Source of the DNA: an uncultured Candidatus Saccharibacteria bacterium
Lineage (GTDB): Bacteria; Patescibacteriota; Minisyncoccia; Phycocordibacterales; XYD1-FULL-46-19
Length of the DNA: 64,000 nucleotides
Assembly (NCBI GenBank): GCA_964639285.1
Contig: CAZXCI010000001.1
Coordinates: 219,757 to 283,756, forward strand
Direction: 5' to 3'
The position numbers and the translations under genes were made by a program. The notes beneath the pieces were generated by a model. That model had not been told where the DNA came from. It made no database searches and was given only the letters and a program-made list of their open reading frames with translations. Positions 4,524-59,642 of the stretch are shown piece by piece (the first letter of the stretch is position 1; every line of letters begins with the position of its first letter).

Positions 4524-6065
4524 TTAATCGTGAGACTCTTTAATTACCCACTTTTGTTTAATCCCCGGCTGAAAGAAAGTAACATCCTCAGCTGGCCATA
4601 AGACAACCTTAGGTAAGGCTCGCTTGCCGATGAAGCGATAAAGTTCTCGGTACTCGGAACTTTTTTTAAGTAAACCTTCGAGAATTGCTCTCTGGACCTT
4701 GTAACGAAGCTTGGGGCTGGCTTTAACCCCTTTTTTCATCTCGACGTTGATTTCGAGATATTGGTTTTGATGTTTATCGAATTTTGTACACATCGCCATC
4801 TTGCCCGTGCAAAACTTGGAGCTTTCTGTTTGGAGGAGTCCATCTTTGATAAATTCTGGGAAAATATTTAGGCCATAAAGAGTAGTAGATAGATCTTTGC
4901 GCTCATAGACATAGACGAAAGGTAGCTCGTTTTTTTGATCTGCAATCCCAGCCTTGCTCATTTCCTTTTTTATATCAAGACCATTATTTTTGAATTTCTC
5001 TTTTAAATCAGCAAAGCTTATTACTCCGCCGTTGTCGCCGATGGCATAACGAACAAGGGGGATAGTATTATCTCCGGTCAGTATTATTTCTCCTTGATCC
5101 TCATCAAAGCTTATGAAGGATGGGTTGAATTGGGTGAAGGTCGGGGTTTTTTCGATATTGCCAAAAATTTCTCCAAAGAGCTTCTTATTTTTAATTGCCT
5201 TCTCTCTTGCGAGGATTGAAAGTGGAGTTTCTGAAGCCATTGCGCCGATATCTGCGCTGCCATAGATGTTAATGGTTTCGCGGTACTTGTTGTTGAGGCC
5301 AACGTGTTCGGCCAAATAATCACGGAAACTCTCGGTGAAAGATTCTGCGGCGAAAGAAAATTTAATTTTTAGTTTCTTCAAATTAATCCCGTTGGCAATT
5401 GCTTCGTCAATTACATCTTTAACAAATGGAGGGTAGCCGCAGATAATTGTCTGGTCAAATAGTGGCGACAACTTACTAAAGGCACTAAAGATTTCCTTTT
5501 TATTTAATCCTGGAGTGATGATAGAAATTTTATTTTTTGTTCTATCCCGAGTCATTTCATAACCGCTAAAGGTAATAAGTCCTCCAATCCAAACCCCCAT
5601 GCCAAAAGCTATGATAACAAGAGTAGACTCCTTGGCGGAGGAAAAACTGTCCAAAAAACGTTCGTGGATAATAGAGCCTTGCCAGTCAAGCTTTGCTTCG
5701 CGAGGGAAATAAAAAGGTTCACCTGTCGAACCGGTGGTTGAGGTATAAGTAGAGTTTTTTTGGGGTTCTCCGTTCCAGAAGAGTTCGCGGTAAGGATAGT
5801 AACGAAGATAATTCTTCTTATTTATAACGGGGACTTTTTGGAAATCGTTCCAAGTTTTTATTTTTTTATGGTTGATTTTGTGTCGGGCCAAAAATTTTTT
5901 ATAAGCAGGGACTTTTTCGGCGGCACGATGAAAAAGGCTTAAGGCTCGAACCTCTCTTTCTCTCATCCAAAAATTACTTGTTCTGGACGAGATAAGGGCA
6001 CTCATTTTTTCTACTTCTTTGTTTGCCTCTTGCATATATTCTAATACCGTTACAGTATACCACAA
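4524..6065 (-). CDS. ANL-superfamily adenylate-forming enzyme, similar to phenylacetate-CoA ligase PaaK and coenzyme F390 synthetase
   Basis: YTSTTGSTGEPFYFP matches the T(S/T)G(S/T)TG.P AMP-binding P-loop; first gene of the 3-gene operon. Confidence 0.6.
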   Translation of the reverse strand: MWYTVTVLEYMQEANKEVEKMSALISSRTSNFWMREREVRALSLFHRAAEKVPAYKKFLARHKINHKKIKTWNDFQKVPVINKKNYLRYYPYRELFWNGEPQKNSTYTSTTGSTGEPFYFPREAKLDWQGSIIHERFLDSFSSAKESTLVIIAFGMGVWIGGLITFSGYEMTRDRTKNKISIITPGLNKKEIFSAFSKLSPLFDQTIICGYPPFVKDVIDEAIANGINLKKLKIKFSFAAESFTESFRDYLAEHVGLNNKYRETINIYGSADIGAMASETPLSILAREKAIKNKKLFGEIFGNIEKTPTFTQFNPSFISFDEDQGEIILTGDNTIPLVRYAIGDNGGVISFADLKEKFKNNGLDIKKEMSKAGIADQKNELPFVYVYERKDLSTTLYGLNIFPEFIKDGLLQTESSKFCTGKMAMCTKFDKHQNQYLEINVEMKKGVKASPKLRYKVQRAILEGLLKKSSEYRELYRFIGKRALPKVVLWPAEDVTFFQPGIKQKWVIKESHD

Positions 6066-9615: not shown

Positions 9616-10710
9616 TTATAATCCTTCGGATTGCAGATTTTCGATCGCCTCACGGGCTTTCTTAGAAAGTTTCGCCGGGGTTGGGAAAGTGACCCGGATG
9701 AGGAGGTCGCCTCTTCGGCTTGTTCCTCGAATGGGTACACCCTTAGCCTTTACCCGTAAAATTTCGCCATAGGTGAGCCCAGCTGGCACCTTCAAAGTTA
9801 GTTGTCCATCGGGAGTTTCTAATTTATAGTCAGTGCCGAGCAGGGCCTCGGTTAATTTGATTTTGATATCGGTGACGAGATCGTTGCCGTTGCGCCTCCA
9901 AGTTTTGTCTTTATCGACATGAACTTTTATATATAAGTCTCCAGTCTGTCCGCCAGCCACCGCTTCGCCTTGACCGGTAAGACGTATCATCTCCCCCGCA
10001 TCGATTCCTGCCGGAACTTTGACCTCGATGCTCTCTTGTTTGTTCAGAATTCCGGCCCCGTGACAGGGCTGGCATTTTTTCTCAGGTATTTCACCACGGC
10101 CAAGGCAGTCGCTACATTCATGGGTTGATTGGAATACGCCGAAGATTGAGCGTCGAGTCTCATTGACCTTCCCTTTCCCGTCACAAGTGGCACATTTTTT
10201 CATCTGAGAGCCAGCTTCGGCTCCAGAGCCATGACAGTTGTCACATTGACTGACTTTATTAATTAAAATATTTCTCTCAGTGCCAAAAATGGCCTCTTTG
10301 AAACTGATTTGGATATCTACTGATATGTCTCTTCCTCTTTTGACCCGGCTACGCCCGCCACCACCGTTGAACATTTCGCCGAAGATATCGCCTAAGTCGA
10401 ATTCGAAGCCACCATTCCCCGCATTTTGGAAACCAGAAAAATCAAAACCACCCCACGCACCATTCGGTCCATGGTTAGTACCGCCTCCGTGATTGCCGCT
10501 AGCAAAATCACTTCCGAACTGATCATACTGTGCGCGCTTAGTATCGTCAGAGAGGATCTGATAAGCTTCGTTAATTTCTTTAAATTTCGCTTCATCACCG
10601 CCCTGCTTGTCGGGGTGGTATTTATGGGCAAGTTTATGAAAAGCTTTTTTCACCTCTTCCTTAGAGGCCTTTTTTTCCACGCCCAATGTTTTGTAATAGT
10701 CTTTGGCCAT
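9616..10710 (-). CDS. dnaJ: Chaperone DnaJ
   Basis: J-domain YYKTLGV...HKLAHKYHPDK, a Gly-rich linker, and four CxxCxGxG zinc-finger repeats. Confidence 0.9.
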   Translation of the reverse strand: MAKDYYKTLGVEKKASKEEVKKAFHKLAHKYHPDKQGGDEAKFKEINEAYQILSDDTKRAQYDQFGSDFASGNHGGGTNHGPNGAWGGFDFSGFQNAGNGGFEFDLGDIFGEMFNGGGGRSRVKRGRDISVDIQISFKEAIFGTERNILINKVSQCDNCHGSGAEAGSQMKKCATCDGKGKVNETRRSIFGVFQSTHECSDCLGRGEIPEKKCQPCHGAGILNKQESIEVKVPAGIDAGEMIRLTGQGEAVAGGQTGDLYIKVHVDKDKTWRRNGNDLVTDIKIKLTEALLGTDYKLETPDGQLTLKVPAGLTYGEILRVKAKGVPIRGTSRRGDLLIRVTFPTPAKLSKKAREAIENLQSEGL

Positions 10711-10814
10711 CCCGTTAGAAATTCATTAATTTATAAGTAATTTCAGACCTTTTATATTTATCAATAATCGTAATATTTACCCCCGTATTTCTAGATAGTA
10801 AAATTTCTAACGGG
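10711..10814 (-). repeat. Inverted-repeat leader element, copy A (CCCGTTAGAAAT...ATTTCTAACGGG, 104 nt, AT-rich interior); it abuts the dnaJ start codon
   Basis: Terminal inverted repeats of 12-13 nt; the same arms are found at 52178-52264 and 59520-59642. Confidence 0.7.
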
Positions 10815-29055: not shown

Positions 29056-32016
29056 TTATACCACAAAGTTTACCAATTTATCCTTAATATATATGGCTTT
29101 TTTATACTTCCCTCTTTCGAGCCATTTACTAACAGTTTCGTCGTTTAGAGCTTGTTTGATAATATTTTCCTCGATCTGGTTAGCCGGGAGATTGAGAGTT
29201 GCTCGGGTTCGGCCATTGATCTGAACAATAATCTTTACTTCAGAGACGACTAATTTCTTTGGATCAGCCGTCGGCCAAGCAGAGAGATGGATAGACTTTT
29301 TCTCACCTAAGTTCTGCCACAATTCTTCGGCCAAGTGAGGGGCAAAAGGGGCCAAGATTTGCAAGAATAATTTGAATTCATTTTTATTTATTACCTCACT
29401 CTTCTCATATTCGTTGACCAAAATCATCATCTGAGAAATAGCTGTGTTGAAGGACATGGCTTCAATATCATCTGTTACTTTTTTAATCGCTTGGTGGGTT
29501 AGTTTTTCTATTCTCTGAGTTTCGAGCGTTGAACGGTTGCTTGATTTTACTTTTTTACTCACTCGCCAAATTTTCTCTAAGAAACGATAAGAACCAATAA
29601 TACTCGCCGTATCCCAACTAATCGCTTGGTCAAAAGGCCCCATAAACATTTCGTAGAGCCTTAGAGTATCGGCTCCATAACTTTCAATAACCATATCCGG
29701 GTTAACAACATTACCTCTCGATTTAGACATTTTTATTCCTCCTTCGCCCAAGATCATACCGTGCGAAGTTCTCTTCTGGTAAGGTTCAATAGTTGGGACA
29801 ACCCCAAGATCATAGAGAAACTTATGCCAGAAACGTGAGTAGAGAAGGTGAAGAGTCGTATGCTCCATTCCTCCATTATACCAATCTACGGGCGTCCAAT
29901 ATTTAGCTTTCTTAGGGTCAAGGGGGTTGGTTTTATTTTGAGGATCAATGTAACGAAGATAATACCAAGAAGAGCCTGCCCAGTTGGGCATGGTATCGGT
30001 CTCGCGCTTGGCTGGGCCATTGCAGACAGGGCATTTTGTCTTTACCCAATCAGAAATAGCCGACAGAGGAGATTCGCCCGTTTTTGTTGGCTTATATTTC
30101 TCAACATGGGGAAGAACTACCGGTAAATCTTTCTCGGGTACCGCTTGCCAACCACATTTATCGCAATGAATCATCGGGATAGGTTCACCCCAATAATGTT
30201 GCCGCGAGAAAATCCAATCACGCAATTTGTATCGTGAGACCTGCCGCCCTCGAACAAATTTTGTCATCGCCTTTTTTGCCTGTTCGTTATTGAGGCCAGT
30301 CCATCGTCCGGAGTTCACCATTTTCCCTGACCCTGCGTAGGCCTCTCCGGCGTGATCAATAAGGGTAGGAAGGTCATTAATAATGACCGGAATAATCGGC
30401 AAATGAAATTTCTTAGCAAACTGATGATCCCTCTCGTCATGAGCGGGGACAGCCATAATGGCTCCTGTTCCATAGTCTGGTAAAACGTAATCGGCAATAA
30501 AAATAGGAATTTCTTCGTTATTGACCGGGTTAATGGCTGTGATCCCTTCTAACTTTACCCCTGTTTTTTCTTTAGTTTCTGCCGTACGTTCAATCTCGCT
30601 TCGACGTCTAGCCTCGGCGATATATTTTTTAACTTCTTTGAAGTTTATGATTTTACTTTTCCACTCAGCAACCAATTTGTGCTCTGGAGCTAAGACTAAA
30701 TATGTTGCTCCGAACAACGTATCAGCCCTAGTGGTGAAAACTTTCACCTGATCTAAACAATGATCAAGAACCAATGGCTCAACTGTCCCGCAAAAATGAG
30801 GCTTTTCCGCTTTAACTCGATACGATTCGCCACCAAGATTTTTCTGAATAATGTCTGACTCCCCTTCAGCGATTACTCCGTCGTTATCATCCTCAAGAAT
30901 AACAATTTTGCCTACATTTTTTTTGATTTTTTCTAAATCAAACTTCCAATCTATAAGATATTTAGCTGCTAAGCGTTCCTTGCCTCGAAATTTTGGCTCA
31001 ATTAGCCCTCCGACAATGACTAACTTTTTAATGGGCTTTTTAAGTCTTTCCAAAATGCGATAAGAAACAACCGAGCCGAGCGAATGACTGACAATTGTCG
31101 TATTTTCATCAAAGTTTACTTTGGAGAGAACTGTTTCCGCTTGTTCAATAACGTCAGGGACAAAAGGATGGGGCAAGTCAAAAGTGATAACTTCGTGGCC
31201 CCTTTCTTCTAACTCACGCCTGAGCCAAGGGATGAAGCAACTCTTGCTCGTGCTTCTCCACCCATGAAGGATGACGTATTTCTCCTTGGCTTTAAGGGGA
31301 AAAGAAATCTCCGCTCCTTCACTTCGGCCAATCCAATTACGCTGTTGGATCTTTATTTTTTCTAAATAATCAACAGTCTCAAGATCATCATAAAGTCGAT
31401 CAGCATATTTAGTAATTGCCAACATCCATTGATCTTTCTCTTTTTTCTCTGCTTCCGTTCCACAGCGTTCACATTTACCGTCCACCACCTCTTCGTTGGC
31501 TAGACCAGTCTTGCAAGAAGGACACCAATTGATTGTCGCCTGACTCTTATAAGCCAAACCTTTTTTGAAGAGCTGGAGGAAGATCCATTGTGTCCATTTA
31601 TAATACTTGGGGTCAGTCGTATCAATTTCTCGATCCCAATCAAAAGAGAAACCAATTGATTTGAGTTGCCGACGGAAATTGCCAATATTTTTCTTAGTAG
31701 TGATTGCTGGGTGAATGCCGGTCTTAATGGCGTAATTTTCTGACGGTAAGCCAAAAGCGTCCCAGCCGATGGGGTACAAAACATTATATCCTTGCATTCG
31801 CCTCTTGCGCGAAATAATGTCCATCGCCGTATTGCTTCTTACATGACCAACATGGAGACCTTCACCTGAAGGATAGGGGAATTCAATGAGAGAGTAAAAT
31901 TTGGGTTTCTTAGAGAAATCTTGGGCCTTATAGATGCCCTCTTTCTCCCAAACTTTTTGCCATTTAGGTTCAATCTTTTTCGGATCGTAGGGTCCCTCTT
32001 TAGAATCATTTTTCAT
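29056..32016 (-). CDS. leuS: Leucyl-tRNA synthetase carrying a serine-hydrolase domain of about 180 aa inserted in-frame
   Basis: HVGH and KMSKS motifs, NWIGRSEGAEI and VFTTRADTLFGATYLVLAPEH CP1 markers; the insert between them has HGW...SHSLGS...H motifs. Confidence 0.9.
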   Translation of the reverse strand: MKNDSKEGPYDPKKIEPKWQKVWEKEGIYKAQDFSKKPKFYSLIEFPYPSGEGLHVGHVRSNTAMDIISRKRRMQGYNVLYPIGWDAFGLPSENYAIKTGIHPAITTKKNIGNFRRQLKSIGFSFDWDREIDTTDPKYYKWTQWIFLQLFKKGLAYKSQATINWCPSCKTGLANEEVVDGKCERCGTEAEKKEKDQWMLAITKYADRLYDDLETVDYLEKIKIQQRNWIGRSEGAEISFPLKAKEKYVILHGWRSTSKSCFIPWLRRELEERGHEVITFDLPHPFVPDVIEQAETVLSKVNFDENTTIVSHSLGSVVSYRILERLKKPIKKLVIVGGLIEPKFRGKERLAAKYLIDWKFDLEKIKKNVGKIVILEDDNDGVIAEGESDIIQKNLGGESYRVKAEKPHFCGTVEPLVLDHCLDQVKVFTTRADTLFGATYLVLAPEHKLVAEWKSKIINFKEVKKYIAEARRRSEIERTAETKEKTGVKLEGITAINPVNNEEIPIFIADYVLPDYGTGAIMAVPAHDERDHQFAKKFHLPIIPVIINDLPTLIDHAGEAYAGSGKMVNSGRWTGLNNEQAKKAMTKFVRGRQVSRYKLRDWIFSRQHYWGEPIPMIHCDKCGWQAVPEKDLPVVLPHVEKYKPTKTGESPLSAISDWVKTKCPVCNGPAKRETDTMPNWAGSSWYYLRYIDPQNKTNPLDPKKAKYWTPVDWYNGGMEHTTLHLLYSRFWHKFLYDLGVVPTIEPYQKRTSHGMILGEGGIKMSKSRGNVVNPDMVIESYGADTLRLYEMFMGPFDQAISWDTASIIGSYRFLEKIWRVSKKVKSSNRSTLETQRIEKLTHQAIKKVTDDIEAMSFNTAISQMMILVNEYEKSEVINKNEFKLFLQILAPFAPHLAEELWQNLGEKKSIHLSAWPTADPKKLVVSEVKIIVQINGRTRATLNLPANQIEENIIKQALNDETVSKWLERGKYKKAIYIKDKLVNFVV

Positions 32017-32064: not shown

Positions 32065-32093
32065 TTGACTTTACGTTTCCACTGATCTATCCT
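32065..32093 (+). promoter_or_regulatory. Putative promoter (TTGACT, 17-nt spacer, TATCCT) that would drive a plus-strand non-coding transcript
   Basis: Hexamers at 32065-32070 and 32088-32093. Confidence 0.35.
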
Positions 32094-32099
32094 TCTCTT

Positions 32100-32340
32100 T
32101 GGAAATGGTGGTACAATTTTGTATCGTTAGCTCAGACCACAACGCTTGGGGATTCCTAGGTAGCCTAGGATGAAAGAGTGAAAAACTATGGCTTTCTGTC
32201 GATTGGGACGCTGCGAGAGACCGATAACCCAGGCGGTGCGAGCTTGGACCTCGGGGAAATCGCAAATATCCCGAGGCGTAGGGGCGTTCTAGACCCATTT
32301 CCTTTCTTTCCGCCTGGTGGGTTCCGTCAGGCGGTTTTTT
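32100..32340 (+). ncRNA. Candidate structured small RNA or attenuator of about 240 nt, ending in an intrinsic terminator; class unknown
   Basis: No credible ORF; nested helices; ccgcctgg can pair either with the upstream cccaggcgg or with the downstream caggcgg; T-run at 32335-32340. Confidence 0.3.
32312..32340 (+). terminator. Intrinsic terminator (ccgcctg-gtgggttccgt-caggcgg-tttttt)
   Basis: Hairpin followed by a T6 run. Confidence 0.6.
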
Positions 32341-32435
32341 CTTGCCTAAATATTCAAACTATGACAGAAATGGAAGTGGAATAATATTGTGTCGTTTGGA
32401 AAGTTAATCTCAACACCCTGAAAGGAGGTGGCTTT
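32341..32435 (+). promoter_or_regulatory. Leader/promoter region, paralog A (TTGCCTAAATAT...CAGAAAT...)
   Basis: About 70% identical to 38139-38242, which lies upstream of an unrelated gene. Confidence 0.5.
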
Positions 32436-32810
32436 ATGTCAGAAGACAATTGCCTTGATAGTGGAGAAAGAAAGACGTTTGAAGAAGCCAAGAAGACACT
32501 TTTAGACTTTCTCGATCAACTTGAGCCAGATGAACGGAGAGAAAAAATAGACGATTTCCTGCATCTTCTCAACTTCGAACGCCGCTTTATGCTTCTTACA
32601 GACGAGGAAAGAGCGCACATGATGGACGAGGGCCTTTCTCCCGAGCAAAGAAAAGCCCTCGATAAAGACAAGGCTTTGTCAGAGGAGGCTTACGAAGAAC
32701 GATTAAAAGGTTATGCTAGGGCGACATACTTCAGGCGCATGGCCTGGGCAGCTTACCTTAACGGAGAAACAGAAAAAAAGCCGTTCTCTTCTCGGCCAAA
32801 GGGAGACTAA
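32436..32810 (+). CDS. Hypothetical acidic protein, 124 aa
   Basis: ORF with a Shine-Dalgarno sequence (GGAGGTGG) and a terminator downstream. Confidence 0.5.
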   Translation: MSEDNCLDSGERKTFEEAKKTLLDFLDQLEPDERREKIDDFLHLLNFERRFMLLTDEERAHMMDEGLSPEQRKALDKDKALSEEAYEERLKGYARATYFRRMAWAAYLNGETEKKPFSSRPKGD

Positions 32811-32973
32811 GGTTATTTAGTCATAGCAACAACAATGCCCACTATTAGTGTCCCCTCTCTCCGGGAGGGGGCCTTTTTATTTGTTTGCAAAAGAAGGGAA
32901 ATTAGGTAGAGTAAGAGCAGAAGTTTTGTTATTTTGAAAAATTAACCCAAATTCTCGAGAAAGGAGAGAAACT

Positions 32974-33993
32974 ATGATTAGTCAAGAAGAAGTTGCTCTC
33001 TTTACCTTAGAGAGAGTGGAGAAAGAAGCTCGAGTTATTTTGGAGCTTCTCCCTAATGGGGAAATCTTAAAGAAGAGAAATCCGAATGGAAAAATCAATG
33101 TCCTCGCCGTTATTGGCCCCGGACTTGAGCCTCTTAACGGTTGCCCTCCAATGGAACAGGTCCTCTTGGCTGAAGTCGGTTTCTACCGAACAAAGCCATA
33201 TAATAGGGTTCGTTCAGTCCCATACCGTCCCAAGCAATTTGTCCTAGCTCCGGAGCAGTATGAATTAGTGGGCACTCATATCTGGGCAGAGTTGGTAGAA
33301 AGAGTAGAAAAAGCTGTCGAAGGTTGGGAATACTCAACTTTCAATTTACCGGTTAGGAGGGACTGGCTGAAGATAACTACCCGGGAAATAGAGACCTCTT
33401 TCCCGCGAAGAAGCTTTGTTCGTGGTTTAAGTTTTAGCTTGGATCAGAGGGATAAAAGGCTTTTTCAGGATTTGTGTTGGGCCGAATTCCATCTGAATCC
33501 TCAAACTAAGAAGATGATAAACTGGCTTGCAAAATTTATCGAGGGAGCTCTTTCAAAAAATAAGAAATTTTTGACACCTCAACAATTTCAACGTTTGAAA
33601 GGCTATCAGGTAATCCAGCAATTATTAGCTGGGCGCAATTTCCCCCCTCACCTGCTTCCAGATGTCCTGATGTCCTCTCCCGTCGGGAAAAAACATCCTC
33701 ATATTCACAATCTCGCTGAATCCGATCTTTTCTCTTGGGACCTAAGTCCAACGGAAGCAATGAAAATGAGGCAAGCATCCCTTCCTGGCCAAAAAGAAAG
33801 ATTAAGGGGGGTTCAAGCACGAATTCGTTCCTTTAGAGAGAACTATGTCGTTTTTGAGATCCTTCCTCGACCAGATTTTCTTTTGAAGCTTGTCTCAGAA
33901 AAAACAAAGGGTGACGAGCCAGAAATTTTTTCCAACAGGAAACTTCAGTATTTAAGGCCAGCTGAGTCTACTGACGAAGAGATCCCCTTCTAA
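32974..33993 (+). CDS. Hypothetical protein, 339 aa
   Basis: ORF with a strong Shine-Dalgarno sequence (AAGGAGAG). Confidence 0.5.
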   Translation: MISQEEVALFTLERVEKEARVILELLPNGEILKKRNPNGKINVLAVIGPGLEPLNGCPPMEQVLLAEVGFYRTKPYNRVRSVPYRPKQFVLAPEQYELVGTHIWAELVERVEKAVEGWEYSTFNLPVRRDWLKITTREIETSFPRRSFVRGLSFSLDQRDKRLFQDLCWAEFHLNPQTKKMINWLAKFIEGALSKNKKFLTPQQFQRLKGYQVIQQLLAGRNFPPHLLPDVLMSSPVGKKHPHIHNLAESDLFSWDLSPTEAMKMRQASLPGQKERLRGVQARIRSFRENYVVFEILPRPDFLLKLVSEKTKGDEPEIFSNRKLQYLRPAESTDEEIPF

Positions 33994-35995: not shown

Positions 35996-37433
35996 TCACT
36001 AAGTCCCCTTCTTTAAGCCCCGAGATTATCTCTGTTTGGCCAAGAGCCCCGATGTTTCCCAGAACAATCGGCTGCTTAACAGTTTGCTCACCAACCTTAA
36101 GTTCTACAAATTTTTGCCCGTCGAGAGTGATAATGGCGCTTGGAGGAACAGAGATGACTCCCGGCTTGCTGAGTGTCGTCAAGATAATATTAGCGGTCAT
36201 CCCTGATTTAATACGAGAATCATTATGAGCAAATTGAAGTTTGACCTTGTAAGTTGAGACACCGTCTCGGATAGTTTCGGCTGGGTCAATAGCAATAATT
36301 TGAGCATCAAAAATGACATCTGAACCATAGGCATCAAGAGTAATCTTTGCTGGATTGCCAACCTTGATGTTCGCGATATTGATTTCGGGGACGAAACTCT
36401 CAATTTGGAAGAGCCCCGAGTTAATCATCGTCACCGTCGCTTGGCCAGCAACCGCCAGCTCGCCCGTCTTAATATCGAGACGAGTGATAATTCCAGCAAA
36501 GGGGGCGCGAAGGAAATAGTCAACCATGTCGTTTTCCCTCTGCTTCACGATCAAACGTTGGCCGTCAATATCAAAGTTAGAATTTTTAAGAGTATTACGG
36601 CTGGCGATGATCGAAGACAAACTATTGTTTACCGTTTGAAGCCAAGTATTGATATTCGTTCGATCGCTCACCAAGCTCGCAACAGAGACCGAACCCATAG
36701 ACTTAAGTTCGTAATCATAAAGATAATTGATATGGAGATTTGTATCCTTGGTCGTCTGGGTAAGGGCCTGGAGCATGGTATAAGTCTCTTCAATTAGATT
36801 TTTTACGGTCTGTGAAGAGATCGGCTGAGTTGCCCCTTTGTAATCAGCGAGGACTTTTTCATACTCGGCCAAAGACTTGTAAAAACCGGCTTGAGCCACC
36901 CTATAATAATTACGGCTCGTTTCGTTTGGTAAGCTAGTCAAGTAAGGCGAAAGTCGGTAATTATTCAAGACACTATCTAGGCCATTGATAATTGTCGGAA
37001 GATCAGAGAAAATTTGATTAATAGTATTTAGACTATCTTCAGAATCCTTATCTAGACCCGAGGAACCACTCAAACTACTGTTTTCAGTCATTTTTCTAAG
37101 TTCTACCTTGGCATTCTCAAGAGCCAAGACCGCATCGCGCGAATCAAGTTCGGCGATTAGTTGTCCAGCACCAACATTTTGCCCGACAGCAACAGGAACA
37201 TTAGATATTTTTCCACTTTTGTTGAAACCGAGATCAACACTCTTAGCCGGGATCACTTTACCTGAGACGGAGACTGTTTGGACAAAGTCCGCCTTTTGAA
37301 CAATTTGAATTTCTTCCACAACTGTATCTTTCTTGTACCAGACAAAATAATAGGCAATTACCCCAATAATCGCGACAACGATAACAATAATGAAGTACCC
37401 CTTAACTTTTCCCAGGAAATTTTTCTTTGTCAT
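35973..37433 (-). CDS. HlyD/MacA-like periplasmic adaptor (membrane fusion protein)
   Basis: N-terminal transmembrane helix, coiled-coil region, biotinyl/lipoyl-like hairpin GQNVGAGQLIAELD. Confidence 0.65.
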   Translation of the reverse strand: MTKKNFLGKVKGYFIIVIVVAIIGVIAYYFVWYKKDTVVEEIQIVQKADFVQTVSVSGKVIPAKSVDLGFNKSGKISNVPVAVGQNVGAGQLIAELDSRDAVLALENAKVELRKMTENSSLSGSSGLDKDSEDSLNTINQIFSDLPTIINGLDSVLNNYRLSPYLTSLPNETSRNYYRVAQAGFYKSLAEYEKVLADYKGATQPISSQTVKNLIEETYTMLQALTQTTKDTNLHINYLYDYELKSMGSVSVASLVSDRTNINTWLQTVNNSLSSIIASRNTLKNSNFDIDGQRLIVKQRENDMVDYFLRAPFAGIITRLDIKTGELAVAGQATVTMINSGLFQIESFVPEINIANIKVGNPAKITLDAYGSDVIFDAQIIAIDPAETIRDGVSTYKVKLQFAHNDSRIKSGMTANIILTTLSKPGVISVPPSAIITLDGQKFVELKVGEQTVKQPIVLGNIGALGQTEIISGLKEGDLVIVNPKTD

Positions 37434-37477: not shown

Positions 37478-38092
37478 CTAACCCTTAAATTTCTTCAAAC
37501 CTAACCAAATTAAGGTCGCCAGAGCCAGACCCAAGACAATAACTCGAAGGTAATCGTCCATTGCCGACCAGTAACGGATAGTTCCGACAACAAAGGAAAT
37601 TAACCCGCCATAAGATAGTCCTGTCGAAATCACAATATTGGCAGATAAAAGTAAGCCAACAAGCAGAGACAATATTCCCAAAATAATTAAAACCAAGAAG
37701 ATATTGCGATTATACAAATCTCGAGCTGTTCCAAAATTCTTTTGGCAAGTGAAGAAAGTGTCGCAATAACCACTAGTGACCGGTCTCGTCTGGTCAAAAT
37801 TAACAGGGCTAGCAGGCGAAGGAATAAATTTTTCGTTAGGATTACTATTCCAAGCTCCGCCGACTTCAAGGCAGGCTTTCTCTCCCTCGGGTTGAATATT
37901 AACTTGTTTCGTCGGGCAAAAGTCTTCGAAGTTTGGTTCGTTATAAACCAGCCTCAGCGCAAAATGGAAAAACAGGTTGAGAACAATCACAATACCAATA
38001 ATCAAAGCCCACTTTAAGAGATTTTTATTATTCATATATCTTAATGGTAGCAGATTTTTACCTAAAACACACCCGCCAAACCCCCTACTCAC
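37478..38092 (-). CDS. Hypothetical membrane protein
   Basis: ORF; several hydrophobic helices. Confidence 0.4.
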   Translation of the reverse strand: MSRGFGGCVLGKNLLPLRYMNNKNLLKWALIIGIVIVLNLFFHFALRLVYNEPNFEDFCPTKQVNIQPEGEKACLEVGGAWNSNPNEKFIPSPASPVNFDQTRPVTSGYCDTFFTCQKNFGTARDLYNRNIFLVLIILGILSLLVGLLLSANIVISTGLSYGGLISFVVGTIRYWSAMDDYLRVIVLGLALATLIWLGLKKFKG

Positions 38093-38138
38093 TTTTAGCC
38101 GAGGCTCAACCTCGACTTTTGCATTACCTCTTTTCCTT

Positions 38139-38242
38139 GCCTAAATATCCAAATTATGGCAGAAATAGGGGCGGAATTTTGTTTAAAAATTTGTGTTGTT
38201 TGAAAAATCAACCCCTCTTAGAAGGGAGAAAGGGAGACTATT
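38139..38242 (+). promoter_or_regulatory. Leader/promoter region, paralog B
   Basis: Conserved blocks shared with 32341-32435. Confidence 0.5.
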
Positions 38243-38710
38243 ATGAGTACAGGGCTCGGATTTCTCGCATCACTTATCTCGCTAACGGTAGTGTTTTACG
38301 GTTTACCGATACAAATTTTAAAAAACTACCAGAACAGGAGTTGTCGAGGTCTATCTTTGGAGCTGGTCGTGGTGACGTTTTTTGCTTACTCAACCTGGTC
38401 GGCTTACGGTTTGACAAAACCAGACTGGTTTCTTTTCGCTTCGCAAACTCCAGGAGCAATATTGGCCCTTCTGATTATTCTCCAATTTGTGAGGTACGAG
38501 GATCTGGTCAGAAGAATTAAAAAAGTGGCAAGGCAAGGCTGGGAAGACTTTCGTTGTACTTGCCCCAAAGAATGCGATTGCGAGATGCCTAAACCGGATA
38601 ATTGGAAGGGAGGAGAAAGGGTGTGGCGATACAGCAACAATTGCCCCATCCACAATGAGGAACCCGAACCAGACCCAGACTGCCCAATTCATGGAGATGA
38701 ATGGGAATAA
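38243..38710 (+). CDS. PQ-loop (SemiSWEET-like) 3-TM membrane domain fused to a Cys/His-rich C-terminal tail
   Basis: LPIQILKNYQNRSCRGLSL resembles the PQ-loop motif; tail has CTCPKECDCE...CPIH...CPIH. Confidence 0.45.
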   Translation: MSTGLGFLASLISLTVVFYGLPIQILKNYQNRSCRGLSLELVVVTFFAYSTWSAYGLTKPDWFLFASQTPGAILALLIILQFVRYEDLVRRIKKVARQGWEDFRCTCPKECDCEMPKPDNWKGGERVWRYSNNCPIHNEEPEPDPDCPIHGDEWE

Positions 38711-38816
38711 TTTAACCCCGCCTATGATTACGACAAACTCGTTGTCAATTATGTGGCGGGTTTGTTGTTTATCCCGTTTAAAAGCCCCCATATCGTCTAG
38801 TAAAGAGCTAGGAAAC

Positions 38817-38845
38817 TTGACTAGTTAAAGCTACTATGATATAAT
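38817..38845 (+). promoter_or_regulatory. Consensus sigma70 promoter (TTGACT, 17-nt spacer, TATAAT)
   Basis: Hexamers at 38817-38822 and 38840-38845. Confidence 0.5.
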
Positions 38846-38851
38846 GGAAGA

Positions 38852-38905
38852 TAGGGTGGATTCAGACCAATTACCGTCAGCGCCTCCGGCGCTGACGGGA
38901 TTTTT
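38852..38905 (+). ncRNA. Candidate tiny sRNA of about 50 nt, lying between a consensus promoter and an intrinsic terminator
   Basis: Terminator ccgtcagcgcc-tcc-ggcgctgacgg-ga-ttttt at 38874-38905; there is no ORF. Confidence 0.3.
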
Positions 38906-38906
38906 C

Positions 38907-49549: not shown

Positions 49550-52177
49550 TTATTTTTTTCTCAACGCCCTTTTGAGATACTTCGCCGTGAAAGAGCCCGG
49601 GGCGTAGGCCACTTCCTCAGGTGTCCCTTTGGCCACCAAGTCACCGCCCCCAAGACCGCCATCCGGACCCATGTCAATAATATAATCAGCACATTTGATC
49701 ACCTCCATATTGTGCTCGATCACCACCACGGTATTCCCCTTCTCTACTAATTTCTGCAAAATATTATTCAAATTTTTCACATCTTCATAGTGCAGACCAA
49801 TCGTCGGTTCATCGAGAATATAAATTGTTCGCTCGGTATGCGGACGATAAAGTTCGGAAGAGATCTTCACCCGTTGCGCTTCACCGCCCGACAAGTCGGT
49901 CGCTGATTGACCAAGTTCGAGATAACCCAGACCCACATCATTAAGAGTTTTGAGTCGATCATAAATGGCTGGGATATCGTTGAAGAACCCTAAAGCTTCT
50001 TCAATCGTCATATGGAGAATCTGACTAATATTTTCCTTTTTATATTGTACCTCGAGCGTATCTTTCTCATAACGAGTGCCTAAACATAAGTCACAAGGAA
50101 CATAGATGGTTGGCAGGAAATGCATCTCTACCGCCACTTCGCCATTACCCCGACAAGCCTCACAACGCCCGCCCTGCACGTTGAAGGAAAAGCGCGAAGC
50201 CTTCCATCCTCTGGCTCGAGCGAGAGCTGTCTCAGCCAAGAGTTCACGAATGAAGGTGAACGCGCCGGTATAAGTGGCTGGATTCGAGCGTGGCGTTCGA
50301 CCAATCGGTGATTGATCAATCATCACGACGCGACTAAGATATTCGCTCCCTGAGAATTCTCGGCAATTAAATAATTCATTTGTGCGATAACGTCGCTCCA
50401 GTCGCGCCTGCAAATTTTTAAACAAAATTTCGTAAACCAAAGATGATTTACCCGAACCTGATACCCCCGTGATCGCCACAAGTTTCCCTAGAGGAATATC
50501 AACATTAAGATTTTTAATATTGAAGATTTGGCCTCCCCGAATTTTGATTGTCCCCTTATCTTTGCTCCGGCGATTCTCGGGGACGGGGATTTCTTTGTCC
50601 CCGCGCAAATAATCAACAGTTAGAGAATTATGATCATTTTTCTTCGAAGTCAGGAGTTTGTCTGTCTCACCCGCCACCACAATTTCTCCACCATGAACAC
50701 CGGCTCCCGGCCCAATATCCACAAGATAGTCGGAGGCAAAAATTGTGTCTTCGTCATGTTCAACGACGACAATAGAATTACCAAGATCGCGCAATTCGAG
50801 CAAGGTTTTTATCAAGCGATCATTGTCACGGGCATGCAAACCAATTGTCGGCTCATCGAGTACATAGAGAGTCCCCACCAAGCGTGAACCAAGCTGAGAC
50901 GCCAAACGTATACGTTGAGCTTCACCACCAGAGAGAGTGTCCGCCCGACGATTAAGAGCAATATAATCCAAACCAACATCATTTAAGAACTTCAGGCGAG
51001 CGCCAATCTCTTTAGTCAGAACTTCAGAAATCGCTTTATCCTTAGGTGATAATTTAAGAGTGTCAAAAAATTTCTTAGCTTCGCCAATGGATAAAGCGAC
51101 GAGGTCGACAATATTTTCATTAAAAATTTTCACTTCGAGGGCTTCGGGGCGAAGCCTGGCCCCCAAACAAGTCTCACAGACTTCGTTACCCCACATATGC
51201 TTGGTTCCCAAACCATGACAAGCGGGACAAGCCCCATAAGGAGAATTGAAGGAGAAGAGGCGAGGCTCAATCTCGGGGAAAGAGAAACCGTCATGGGGGC
51301 AAGCAAATTTTGACGACAAGAGGGAAGTCTCCCCTCCGATGATAATCTTAATTAAACCGTCAGATTCTTTGAGCGCTCGCTCCACCCCCTCGGTTAAGCG
51401 TTCGTTAGCTGAGTCAAATTTAGCAATGGCAACAATCTTGCTAAGTTCGCCCCGCGTAGCTTTAGCGGAGTGGGGCTTCGCGATAAAATCGGACAAGTTT
51501 ATCTCATCCACTACTACATCAATATCGTGTTTCTTGGTTTTAGTGAGAATTATTCTTTCGCGTAATTTATATTTTTTATTATCAATCAAAACTTCTGAAT
51601 AACCCTTCTCAATCAGATCATAGAGAAGTTGATAATATTCACCTTTTCTCCCTTTCACTACCGGCGCCAGCAATGTGACTGAGGTAAAGGCAGAGAGAGA
51701 TCGTTTTTCGCGTAGCAAAATGGGGTCTCGCGGAGCTTCTTCTATTTTATTTTTTACAAAATTCACAATCTCCTCATGTGAAAGTTTTTCGATCCGTGTT
51801 CCACAGACAGGGCAATAGGGCTGACCAATTCGAGCATATAGCACCCGTAGATAATCATAAATCTCGGTAATAGTAGCAACAGTTGAACGTGGATTATGTG
51901 ATCGTGACTTCTGATCAATGGAGATGGCGGGCGAGAGACCGGTAATCTCATCGACGTCAGGCTTAGGTAATTGCTTCAAAAATTGACGAGCGTAAGCTGA
52001 GAGCGATTCCACATAACGACGTTGGCCCTCGGCAAAAATTGTGTCAAAAGCGAGGCTAGACTTGCCCGAACCCGAAAGACCAGTAAAAACCACCAACTTA
52101 TTGCGTGGTATTTCTAAACTCACATTCTTGAGATTATGAGTCCGAGCCCCCTTAATTTTGATTTTTTGTTCTTCCAC
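49550..52177 (-). CDS. uvrA: Excinuclease ABC subunit A (GTG start)
   Basis: [10 protein letters not shown]...[23 protein letters not shown]; two ABC ATPase modules. Confidence 0.9.
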
Positions 52178-52264
52178 CCCGTTAGAAATAGATCGCGATC
52201 TATGAATAAATAATAATCTCTTTAGACTCTCTCGTTAGCCATCGCGGTTTCTAACGGGATTCAT
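52178..52264 (-). repeat. Inverted-repeat leader element, copy B; abuts the uvrA start codon
   Basis: CCCGTTAGAAATAGATCGCGATC...CGCGGTTTCTAACGGGATTCAT. Confidence 0.7.
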
Positions 52265-58517: not shown

Positions 58518-59519
58518 TTATTTCACTAGGTTCACCGGTGTGCCGGAGGCAAAACTTCTGACATTCTCAAGGGTTGTATTAACGATACGCAGCATAGCCT
58601 CCCAAGTGTTGAAGGCGTTGTGCGGAGTGACAATAACATTGGGCATATCAACCAAAATGTGGTTTTGCAAGACCGTACGGAGATTGTGTTCACCCGAACT
58701 TGGGGTGGTGAGATAAGTAAATTCATCTTTAGTCACCCCCTCTTCTTCTAAGACATCAAGACCAGCTCCCGCCAAGTGTCCATCTTTAAGACTCTTGAGT
58801 AAAGCATCTGTCTCGACTAAAGCCCCGCGAGCCGTATTGATGAGGTAAGCCCCTTTCTTCATCTTGGCCAAAGTGTCAGCGTTGATGAGGTGATGATTCT
58901 CTTCCATATAGGGCACATGTAGAGTCACAATATCAGCTTGCGCCAAGACCTCATCGAAAGTTAGATATTGGTAATCAAATTTCGCCCGATAGGCCTCATC
59001 GGGGAATTTGTCATAAGCGATAACCTTCATGTTGAAGCCTTTAGCAATCTCAATCACGTTCTTGCCAATCTTGCCGGTGCCAATCACACCCAACGTTTTC
59101 CCATTCAGGTCAAAACCGCGCATCCCCTCGAGGCTAAAGCTTCCTGTCTCTCTAATCCGATCATAGCTAGCAAAAATCTTACGTGACAGGGTGAGCATCA
59201 GGGCAAAGGCGTATTCGGCCACCGTCTCCTCACCATAACTCGGGACATTAGCCACCACGACTCCGTGAGCTTTGCAAAGGTCAAGATCAATATGATCAAA
59301 ACCGGTCGAGCGTGTCGAAATCATTTTGAGCTTGGGAAAATGAACGAGAACTTTCTCATTAATTACTGAATTCACAAAAACAGAAAGGATCTCCGCATCA
59401 TTCTCGGTCGGCAGAGTGTCTTCGGTCAAAATTCCATCAAGAAGTTCTGTCTCAGACAAATTTTGTTCCTGCAAATACTCCTTTTCCCATTTTTCTAACT
59501 CAAAAAATATTGTTTTCAT
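58518..59519 (-). CDS. D-isomer-specific 2-hydroxyacid dehydrogenase (D-lactate dehydrogenase-like)
   Basis: GKTLGVIGTGKIG NAD-binding motif, catalytic region AYLINTARGALV...H. Confidence 0.8.
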   Translation of the reverse strand: MKTIFFELEKWEKEYLQEQNLSETELLDGILTEDTLPTENDAEILSVFVNSVINEKVLVHFPKLKMISTRSTGFDHIDLDLCKAHGVVVANVPSYGEETVAEYAFALMLTLSRKIFASYDRIRETGSFSLEGMRGFDLNGKTLGVIGTGKIGKNVIEIAKGFNMKVIAYDKFPDEAYRAKFDYQYLTFDEVLAQADIVTLHVPYMEENHHLINADTLAKMKKGAYLINTARGALVETDALLKSLKDGHLAGAGLDVLEEEGVTKDEFTYLTTPSSGEHNLRTVLQNHILVDMPNVIVTPHNAFNTWEAMLRIVNTTLENVRSFASGTPVNLVK

Positions 59520-59642
59520 CCCGTTAGAAACAGGTCGCGATCTTTAAATCACCACCCGTCATTATTTTATTATTTAATAATATCTTTAACATTTTAACTT
59601 TTATACACCATCCTAGCGATCGCGGTTTCTAACGGGATTCAT
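59520..59642 (-). repeat. Inverted-repeat leader element, copy C; abuts the start codon of the 2-hydroxyacid dehydrogenase gene
   Basis: CCCGTTAGAAACAGGTCGCGATC...GATCGCGGTTTCTAACGGGATTCAT. Confidence 0.7.

Follow-up and report, generated by a model that had tools for sequence, protein, structure and literature searches.

Two intergenic stretches in the window, i.e., the whole 64-kb stretch of DNA that we have analyzed, share a 47-nt block that is probably a duplicated sigma-70-type promoter together with its first ~10 transcribed bases. The two copies (A and B) precede a 124-aa protein gene and a SemiSWEET gene, respectively, and we infer their promoter activity, start sites, and origin by duplication from the sequence and its comparison with relatives. 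Overall, the feature is real but ordinary: one duplicated promoter with a decayed leader, in front of two unrelated, self-contained accessory genes. The features that compose the two units, and the small RNA that adjoins the first, are the following.

32101-32340, plus strand: structured, unannotated small RNA, ~240 nt in length, that separates leuS from copy A; the T run of its terminator is the upstream edge of copy A
32336-32382, plus strand: copy A of the 47-nt repeat, with a T-rich upstream edge, the predicted promoter, and the predicted first ~10 transcribed bases
32342-32347, plus strand: predicted -35 hexamer of copy A, TTGCCT (4/6 matches to TTGACA)
32362-32371, plus strand: predicted extended -10 of copy A, TGaCAGAAAT (TG at 32362-32363, CAGAAA at 32365-32370), 17 nt from the -35
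32372-32435, plus strand: unstructured 5' leader of copy A, with the Shine-Dalgarno sequence GAAAGGAGGTG at 32420-32430 (folding z 0.16)
32436-32810, plus strand: cargo A, an all-helical 124-aa protein of pI 5.0 from a family of 15 members, with no function assigned by the searches
32850-32880, plus strand: intrinsic terminator of cargo A (z -2.3)
38131-38177, plus strand: copy B of the 47-nt repeat, from the direct-repeat comparison, pattern scan, and blastn
38137-38142, plus strand: predicted -35 hexamer of copy B, TTGCCT, read from the sequence and the pattern scan
38157-38166, plus strand: predicted extended -10 of copy B, TGgCAGAAAT (hexamer at 38160-38165), 17 nt from the -35
38167-38242, plus strand: unstructured 5' leader of copy B, with two AAGGGAG Shine-Dalgarno-like sites at 38222-38236 (folding z 1.38)
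38243-38710, plus strand: cargo B, a SemiSWEET (MtN3/PQ-loop) protein with a Cys-rich C-terminal tail, from Pfam and the homolog search
38717-38772, plus strand: terminator of cargo B, made of a long hairpin and a U-rich tract after it (-22.1 kcal/mol, z -3.5)

The solid part of the repeat (32336-32382 vs. 38131-38177) was identical at 39 of 47 positions (83%) and constituted the longest ungapped direct repeat between positions 32000 and 39200. Its 30-nt core, TTGCCTAAATATNCAAANTATGNCAGAAAT, starts at 32342 and 38137 on the plus strand; exactly these two sites were present in the 64 kb, a third was absent from the window even at three mismatches, and none of 100 shuffled sequences carried one. 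By blastn, copies A and B shared 32/36 identities (E 6e-6), and their local alignment reached a z of 13. The sequence-only reading had aligned the two regions over their full length of ~100 nt, and of that alignment the 47-nt core stood, with the downstream part being weak. Beyond about +10, 3' of the block, a 9-nt indel plus several smaller ones were required, and the similarity came down to the Shine-Dalgarno sequence and one A/T-rich block. Once the ribosome-binding site was taken out, the leaders of A and B still resembled each other with a z of 4.2 against shuffles, and upstream regions of other window genes scored nearly as well as the A-B leader pair (31 vs. 32). The GAA-GGAG block is the Shine-Dalgarno sequence, with GAAAGGAGGTG complementary to the 3' end of the 16S rRNA, and is thus uninformative on homology. 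Likewise, the 21-nt leader block GTGTCGTTTGGAAAGTTAATC (GTGT-GTTTG-AAA) matched a coding site at 36919-36939 with 81% identity and copy B with only 76%.

The proposal that each copy directly follows an intrinsic terminator was true of copy A only, which lies immediately 3' of such a terminator (32310-32334 plus T run). Copy B is located inside a 207-nt divergent intergenic region whose upstream gene (37478-38035) is on the minus strand, and the hairpin upstream of it (38100-38114) is a weak one (-7.2 kcal/mol, z -1.5) whose end lies 22 nt short of the repeat.

The layout of the block bore out the idea of paralogous promoter regions. In both copies, the near-identical sequence covers a -35 hexamer, a 17-nt spacer, and a TG-extended -10, ~65-75 nt before the start codon, with the -35, spacing, TG, and -10 positions being identical between A and B. 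The ortholog of copy A in the relative L009 (LeuRS 87% identical), CTTGCCAAAATATCTAAATTATGACAGAAAT, carries TTGCCA as its -35 and the same 17-bp spacer. The -10 hexamer CAGAAA matches TATAAT at three of six positions (A2 present, T6 absent); in an alternative -10, AGAAAT with an 18-nt spacing, the key A of position 2 is missing. A simple consensus promoter scan did not call the TTGCCT/CAGAAA pair. The -35 of copy A occupies the position of TTGACT in the canonical promoters at 38817 and 29045 (minus strand). In addition, the promoter of a neighboring 340-aa sigma-region-4 (sigma-r4) gene (TTGACT-17-TGaTAGAAAT), which is kept in L009 and in the relative L010 (LeuRS 80% identical; a 553-kb JGI contig), has the same layout as A and B. 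When the canonical promoter at 38817-38845 (TTGACT-17-TATAAT with TG) was aligned to copy A, TATAAT fell on CAGAAA, in an alignment (CTTGaCTA...ACTATGA-TATAAT-GGAAG) that is marginal, with 84 of 3,000 shuffles scoring as high. The resemblance of the small RNA 5' end (32102-32122) and of the 38817 and sigma-r4 promoters to A/B was marginal (shuffle fractions about 0.02-0.3), and we have used these sequences solely to support the hexamer positions. Several other canonical TTGACA/TATAAT promoters occur within the window, and hence the organism uses sigma-70-type signals. Based on the -35/17/TG/-10 layout shared with neighboring promoters, we interpret the block as a sigma-70-type promoter of the extended -10 class, its -10 hexamer being weak.

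According to this promoter reading, transcription would start ~7 nt past the hexamer, near 32377-32380 and 38172-38175. The mRNAs would then carry leaders of ~55-70 nt that are unstructured and have a strong Shine-Dalgarno sequence at their end. Each copy would drive one monocistronic plus-strand accessory gene with its own terminator. The likeness of A and B would come from the duplication of a single ~100-nt promoter-plus-leader segment, after which the promoter core would have been held by selection and the leader would have decayed. Core and leader differ in identity both between the paralogs (83% vs. roughly 60%, with indels) and between copy A and its L009 ortholog (87% vs. about 70%). 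The poor -10 hexamer counts against this reading, as does the invariance of 12 of the 17 spacer positions among A, B, and the L009 ortholog, which exceeds the need of a plain sigma-70 promoter. No relevant data on CPR promoters or start sites emerged from a literature search.

The relatives for which DNA could be compared were L009, L010, and the outgroup L086 (LeuRS 63% identical). The homologs of the window LeuRS were named Candidatus Paceibacterota or Patescibacteria, and the same contig was present in several Logan assemblies. Both cargo genes are plus-strand genes within a conserved minus-strand backbone, with leuS, an ABC exporter, and ychF as neighbors. L010 has neither the small RNA nor the 124-aa gene, the ABC block, or the SemiSWEET gene, and in L086 the p185-HlyD-FtsX-ABC-leuS order is contiguous and co-directional. 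The synteny of L010 and L086 thus indicates that the plus-strand genes are lineage-specific insertions into the minus-strand backbone. Within a 50-nt block, copy A and its L009 ortholog differ at 6 positions, and each differs from copy B at 8-10; hence, the duplication would roughly coincide with, or precede, the split between the window lineage and L009. In L009, the contig ends before the locus of copy B, and its remaining part is without the motif.

For the leuS, ABC ATPase, and sigma-r4 genes, the identity of window and L009 at fourfold-degenerate sites is about 40%, i.e., these sites are saturated, so that high intergenic identity would normally indicate selection. The fourfold identity of the 124-aa gene (32436-32810 vs. 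L009 5260-5634) was 80% (28/35; P about 2e-6 against 40%), and the amino-acid identity of its product was 72%. This pattern suggests recent exchange or nucleotide-level constraint, plus relaxed or diversifying protein evolution, and the small RNA-promoter-gene segment may have been exchanged between lineages more recently than its flanks. Such an exchange would weaken the argument from ortholog conservation, and would also fit a transferable unit.

A possible third copy lies downstream of cargo A.

32884-32973, plus strand: copy C, a possible diverged third copy before a 339-aa gene, with TTTGCA-17-TAGAGT and a weakly A/B-like leader

The B-C leader similarity had a z of 6.3 with the Shine-Dalgarno sequence and of 4.2 without it, and copy C deprived of this sequence was barely above background. 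A MAFFT alignment of C with A and B placed TAGAGT opposite CAGAAA; copy C was itself among the sequences used to train the leader HMM by which it is scored. Copy C is possibly an older paralog of A and B. The upstream region of the L010 ortholog of the 339-aa gene was considered as a further copy and was similar by eye, with no significance. As for the 339-aa gene itself (32974-33993, plus strand), it and its orthologs in L009 (4125-5096) and L010 (8840-9772) encode proteins of 310-339 aa and keep their position beside leuS. The protein is fast-evolving (47% and 37% identity in L009 and L010, where LeuRS has 87% and 80%) and had no Pfam, PHROGs, or PADLOC match.

Because the spacer is conserved, a shared operator is possible. 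The promoter might then be overlapped by the operator of one regulator, with two (or more) accessory genes forming a small co-regulated set, an idea that we consider rather unlikely and that would add to the promoter explanation without replacing it. Across A, B, and the L009 ortholog, the conservation of the spacer and of positions +1 to +10 equals that of the hexamers, with GG..G.GGAAT kept alongside the 12 invariant spacer positions, and the weak -10 suggests activator dependence. However, recent duplication or exchange can also yield such conservation; the block, when read by eye, showed no dyad or regularly spaced direct repeat; and no candidate regulator gene was identified beside either copy.

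The number of sites also speaks against an operator, with only two in the 64 kb and none in any scanned collection. The only additional copy of the core was the L009 ortholog of copy A; no other was found in the window, the GTDB species-representative genomes, the JGI metagenomes, IMG/VR, or the loci of relatives and phage-like homologs. Of the source contig, the scan covered the window, with about 310 kb lying beyond it, and a small regulon is accordingly still conceivable. The GTDB species representatives, a collection that the source genome lies outside of, gave one exact-pattern match, a chance occurrence inside a Clostridia coding sequence. The scan of the JGI metagenomes with AAATATNNAAANTATGNCAGAAAT returned 69 matches, none with TTGCC upstream or GG..GGAAT downstream, most of them being start codons of the form ATGnCAGAAAT. 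IMG/VR was scanned twice, once per motif half, and none of the 10 matches carried the other half. Finally, nhmmer profiles of promoter and leader retrieved only their training sequences from the window, L009, L010, L086, and the phage-like loci. The sequence-only reading had envisaged a common regulator-binding site or an RNA leader. With neither further copies nor compensatory changes between the two, the regulon and RNA readings fail on the collections searched.

An extended form of the operator idea sees the 47-nt block as a portable promoter-plus-operator module, with the spacer as a putative regulator site, which a Paceibacteria lineage would have copied onto acquired opposite-strand genes. 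We judge this improbable. If it were true, the acquired 124-aa (phage-derived) gene, the SemiSWEET fusion, and perhaps the fast-evolving 339-aa gene would be controlled as a set.

The two cargo genes are unrelated, as had been recognized, one encoding a protein without a Pfam match and the other a SemiSWEET of the MtN3/PQ-loop type. The 124-aa protein gave no match in Pfam, PHROGs, PADLOC, a PDB sequence search, or GenBank phages (tblastn). Its structure model was confident (pLDDT 86) and all-helical, and a Foldseek comparison of the model with the PDB gave no match. Distant family members were found in phage-like contigs beside RdgC, NinB, YqaJ, DUF3164, and HU genes, and one homolog adjoins a tRNA 3' end. 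In the phage-like contig L083, a GC-rich non-coding region of ~330 nt with its own TTGACA promoter (5575-6000) precedes the 124-aa homolog; the arrangement parallels that of small RNA and gene in the window, without sequence similarity to the window small RNA and without an Rfam match. In cargo B, the MtN3/PQ-loop domain spans aa 5-86 and six of the seven Cys residues are in the tail. A single distant, partial homolog was found (58% identity over 55% of the length). The C-terminal ~65 aa (CTCPKECDCE...NNCPIHNE...DCPIHGDE) contain two CPIH motifs; no homolog of this tail was found, and it is possibly metal-binding. PHROGs gave no match for the cargo genes or their neighbors.

Cassette-like acquisition, which had also been suggested, received circumstantial support, since the units have their own promoter and terminator, lie on the opposite strand, are missing from relatives, and, for the 124-aa family, have homologs in phage-like contigs. 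However, neither inverted repeats nor target duplications were found, and no recombinase gene was present among the 15 ORFs compared with Pfam. We also consider it quite improbable that the genes were brought in by a small mobile or recombination element (a promoter-bearing MITE or a cassette junction), with the repeat as its end or its remnant. Such an origin would agree with both cargo genes being lineage-specific insertions opposite to the backbone, with the phage association of the 124-aa family and the homolog next to a tRNA, and with the synonymous sites of the 124-aa gene, which look "younger" than the flanks. However, no terminal inverted repeats or target duplications were found around either copy, no repeat lies on the 3' side of either gene, and only two copies were found, with none in the phage-like homolog loci or IMG/VR. 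Moreover, no integrase or transposase was present among the 15 ORFs checked against Pfam.

We have rejected the view of the ~100 nt as a cis-regulatory RNA leader (riboswitch, attenuator, or protein-binding RNA) common to both mRNAs, which we hold to be very improbable. RNAalifold predicted zero consensus pairs for five leader sequences, the folding energies were those of shuffles (z 0.16, 0.36, 1.38, -0.92, and 0.06, with 0.16 to 1.38 for the A and B copies), and the Rfam search of the leaders gave no credible match even up to an E value of 10. The conserved blocks named by the sequence-only reading do fall within the leader, but the most conserved part lies upstream of the predicted start site, and the leader block is matched equally well by chance in coding DNA. 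A small hairpin of the form GUUR-loop-YAAC fits A, B, C, and the L009 orthologs when drawn by hand, with one G-C to A-U swap between B and C in a 4-bp stem, the only compensatory pair found. The hand-drawn stem is of 4-6 bp with a loop of 10-17 nt and lies outside the minimum-energy fold of copy A, and we have dropped this hairpin as a conserved element for being too weak. A second hand-drawn helix (CAAAC-TAT-GACA/TGTC-GTTTG), which joins promoter and leader, presented one-sided changes only and would need a start upstream of the promoter, and we have likewise dropped it. As for chance resemblance between A/T-rich intergenic stretches, its probability is practically nil: the leader part does lie near the background of other upstream regions, but the shuffles, the z of 13, and the blastn E value refute it as the source of the 47-nt core.

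The small RNA beside copy A may be a more interesting object of the region than the promoter. It comes with a promoter (TTGACT-17-TATCCT, 32065-32093) and a strong terminator of its own, and is 88-93% identical to L009, while the flanking synonymous sites are saturated. Of its 65 predicted pairs, 3 showed compensatory changes, 7 showed one-sided changes, and none was broken (folding z -2.5). It belongs to no Rfam family, and no copies were found in the other fetched loci or in IMG/VR. The pairing of its tract CCUUUCUUUCC with the leaders or the 124-aa coding sequence was limited to a 9-bp purine run.

Other features were observed in the window. At 38817-38906 (plus strand), a strong terminator (38874-38898) lies ~30 nt past a perfect promoter (TTGACT-17-TATAAT with TG), and the predicted ~55-nt transcript has a folding energy of -28 kcal/mol (z -4.6). 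It could be a tiny sRNA, and the hairpin may be a bidirectional terminator for ychF. Three palindromic elements, whose arms read ATCCCGTTAGAAAC(C)GCGATC, are located at 10711-10814, 52178-52258, and 59520-59636. Each adjoins the start codon of a minus-strand gene (9616-10710, 49550-52177, and 58518-59519, respectively), with the inner arm overlapping the AUG/GUG. Six exact CCCGTTAGAAA sites form three inverted pairs, a count that no shuffle reached. These elements could be start-codon-sequestering hairpins or MITE-like insertions. LeuRS (29056-32016, minus strand) contains an alpha/beta-hydrolase (Ser hydrolase) insertion at about aa 247-342, and the same combination, in some cases extended by a NUDIX domain, is found widely in the LeuRS homologs of Patescibacteria.

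The feature is of a kind already known, namely promoter duplication and moron-like units. Extended -10 (TGn) sigma-70 promoters are exemplified by Escherichia coli galP1, and the -16 TG region is common in Gram-positive promoters. A and B resemble them in having a TTGNNN -35, a 17-bp spacer, a TG one base before the -10, and a distance of 65-75 nt to a start codon with a Shine-Dalgarno sequence. They differ in their weak -10 (CAGAAA) and in the conservation of the spacer and initial transcribed bases, and their starts are predicted only. Phage "morons," as reportedly described by Hendrix and colleagues, are autonomous promoter-gene-terminator units placed between conserved genes. The cargo genes are like them in having their own predicted promoter and terminator, in being absent from relatives, and in interrupting a conserved gene order, and the 124-aa family is found in phage-like contigs. 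Unlike morons, the cargo units reside in the chromosomal backbone, not in a recognizable prophage, and have one promoter sequence in common, and the SemiSWEET cargo is without phage relatives. The Correia elements of Neisseria are promoter-carrying miniature repeats. Like these, the repeat studied here, of ~50-100 nt, stands before unrelated genes and would supply a promoter, but A and B are without terminal inverted repeats or target-site duplication, and two copies were found. Integron cassettes usually lack a promoter, and their end is an attC site beside an integrase. Our units are, like them, small single-gene accessory units, but each carries a predicted promoter and a Rho-independent terminator of its own, and neither an integrase nor an attC site was seen.

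To our knowledge, the promoters of Patescibacteria (CPR) have received almost no experimental study. The A/B pair, with its clear -35/TG/-10 layout, offers two candidates for start-site mapping or expression tools in Patescibacteria, and is a small example of acquired genes obtaining expression signals.
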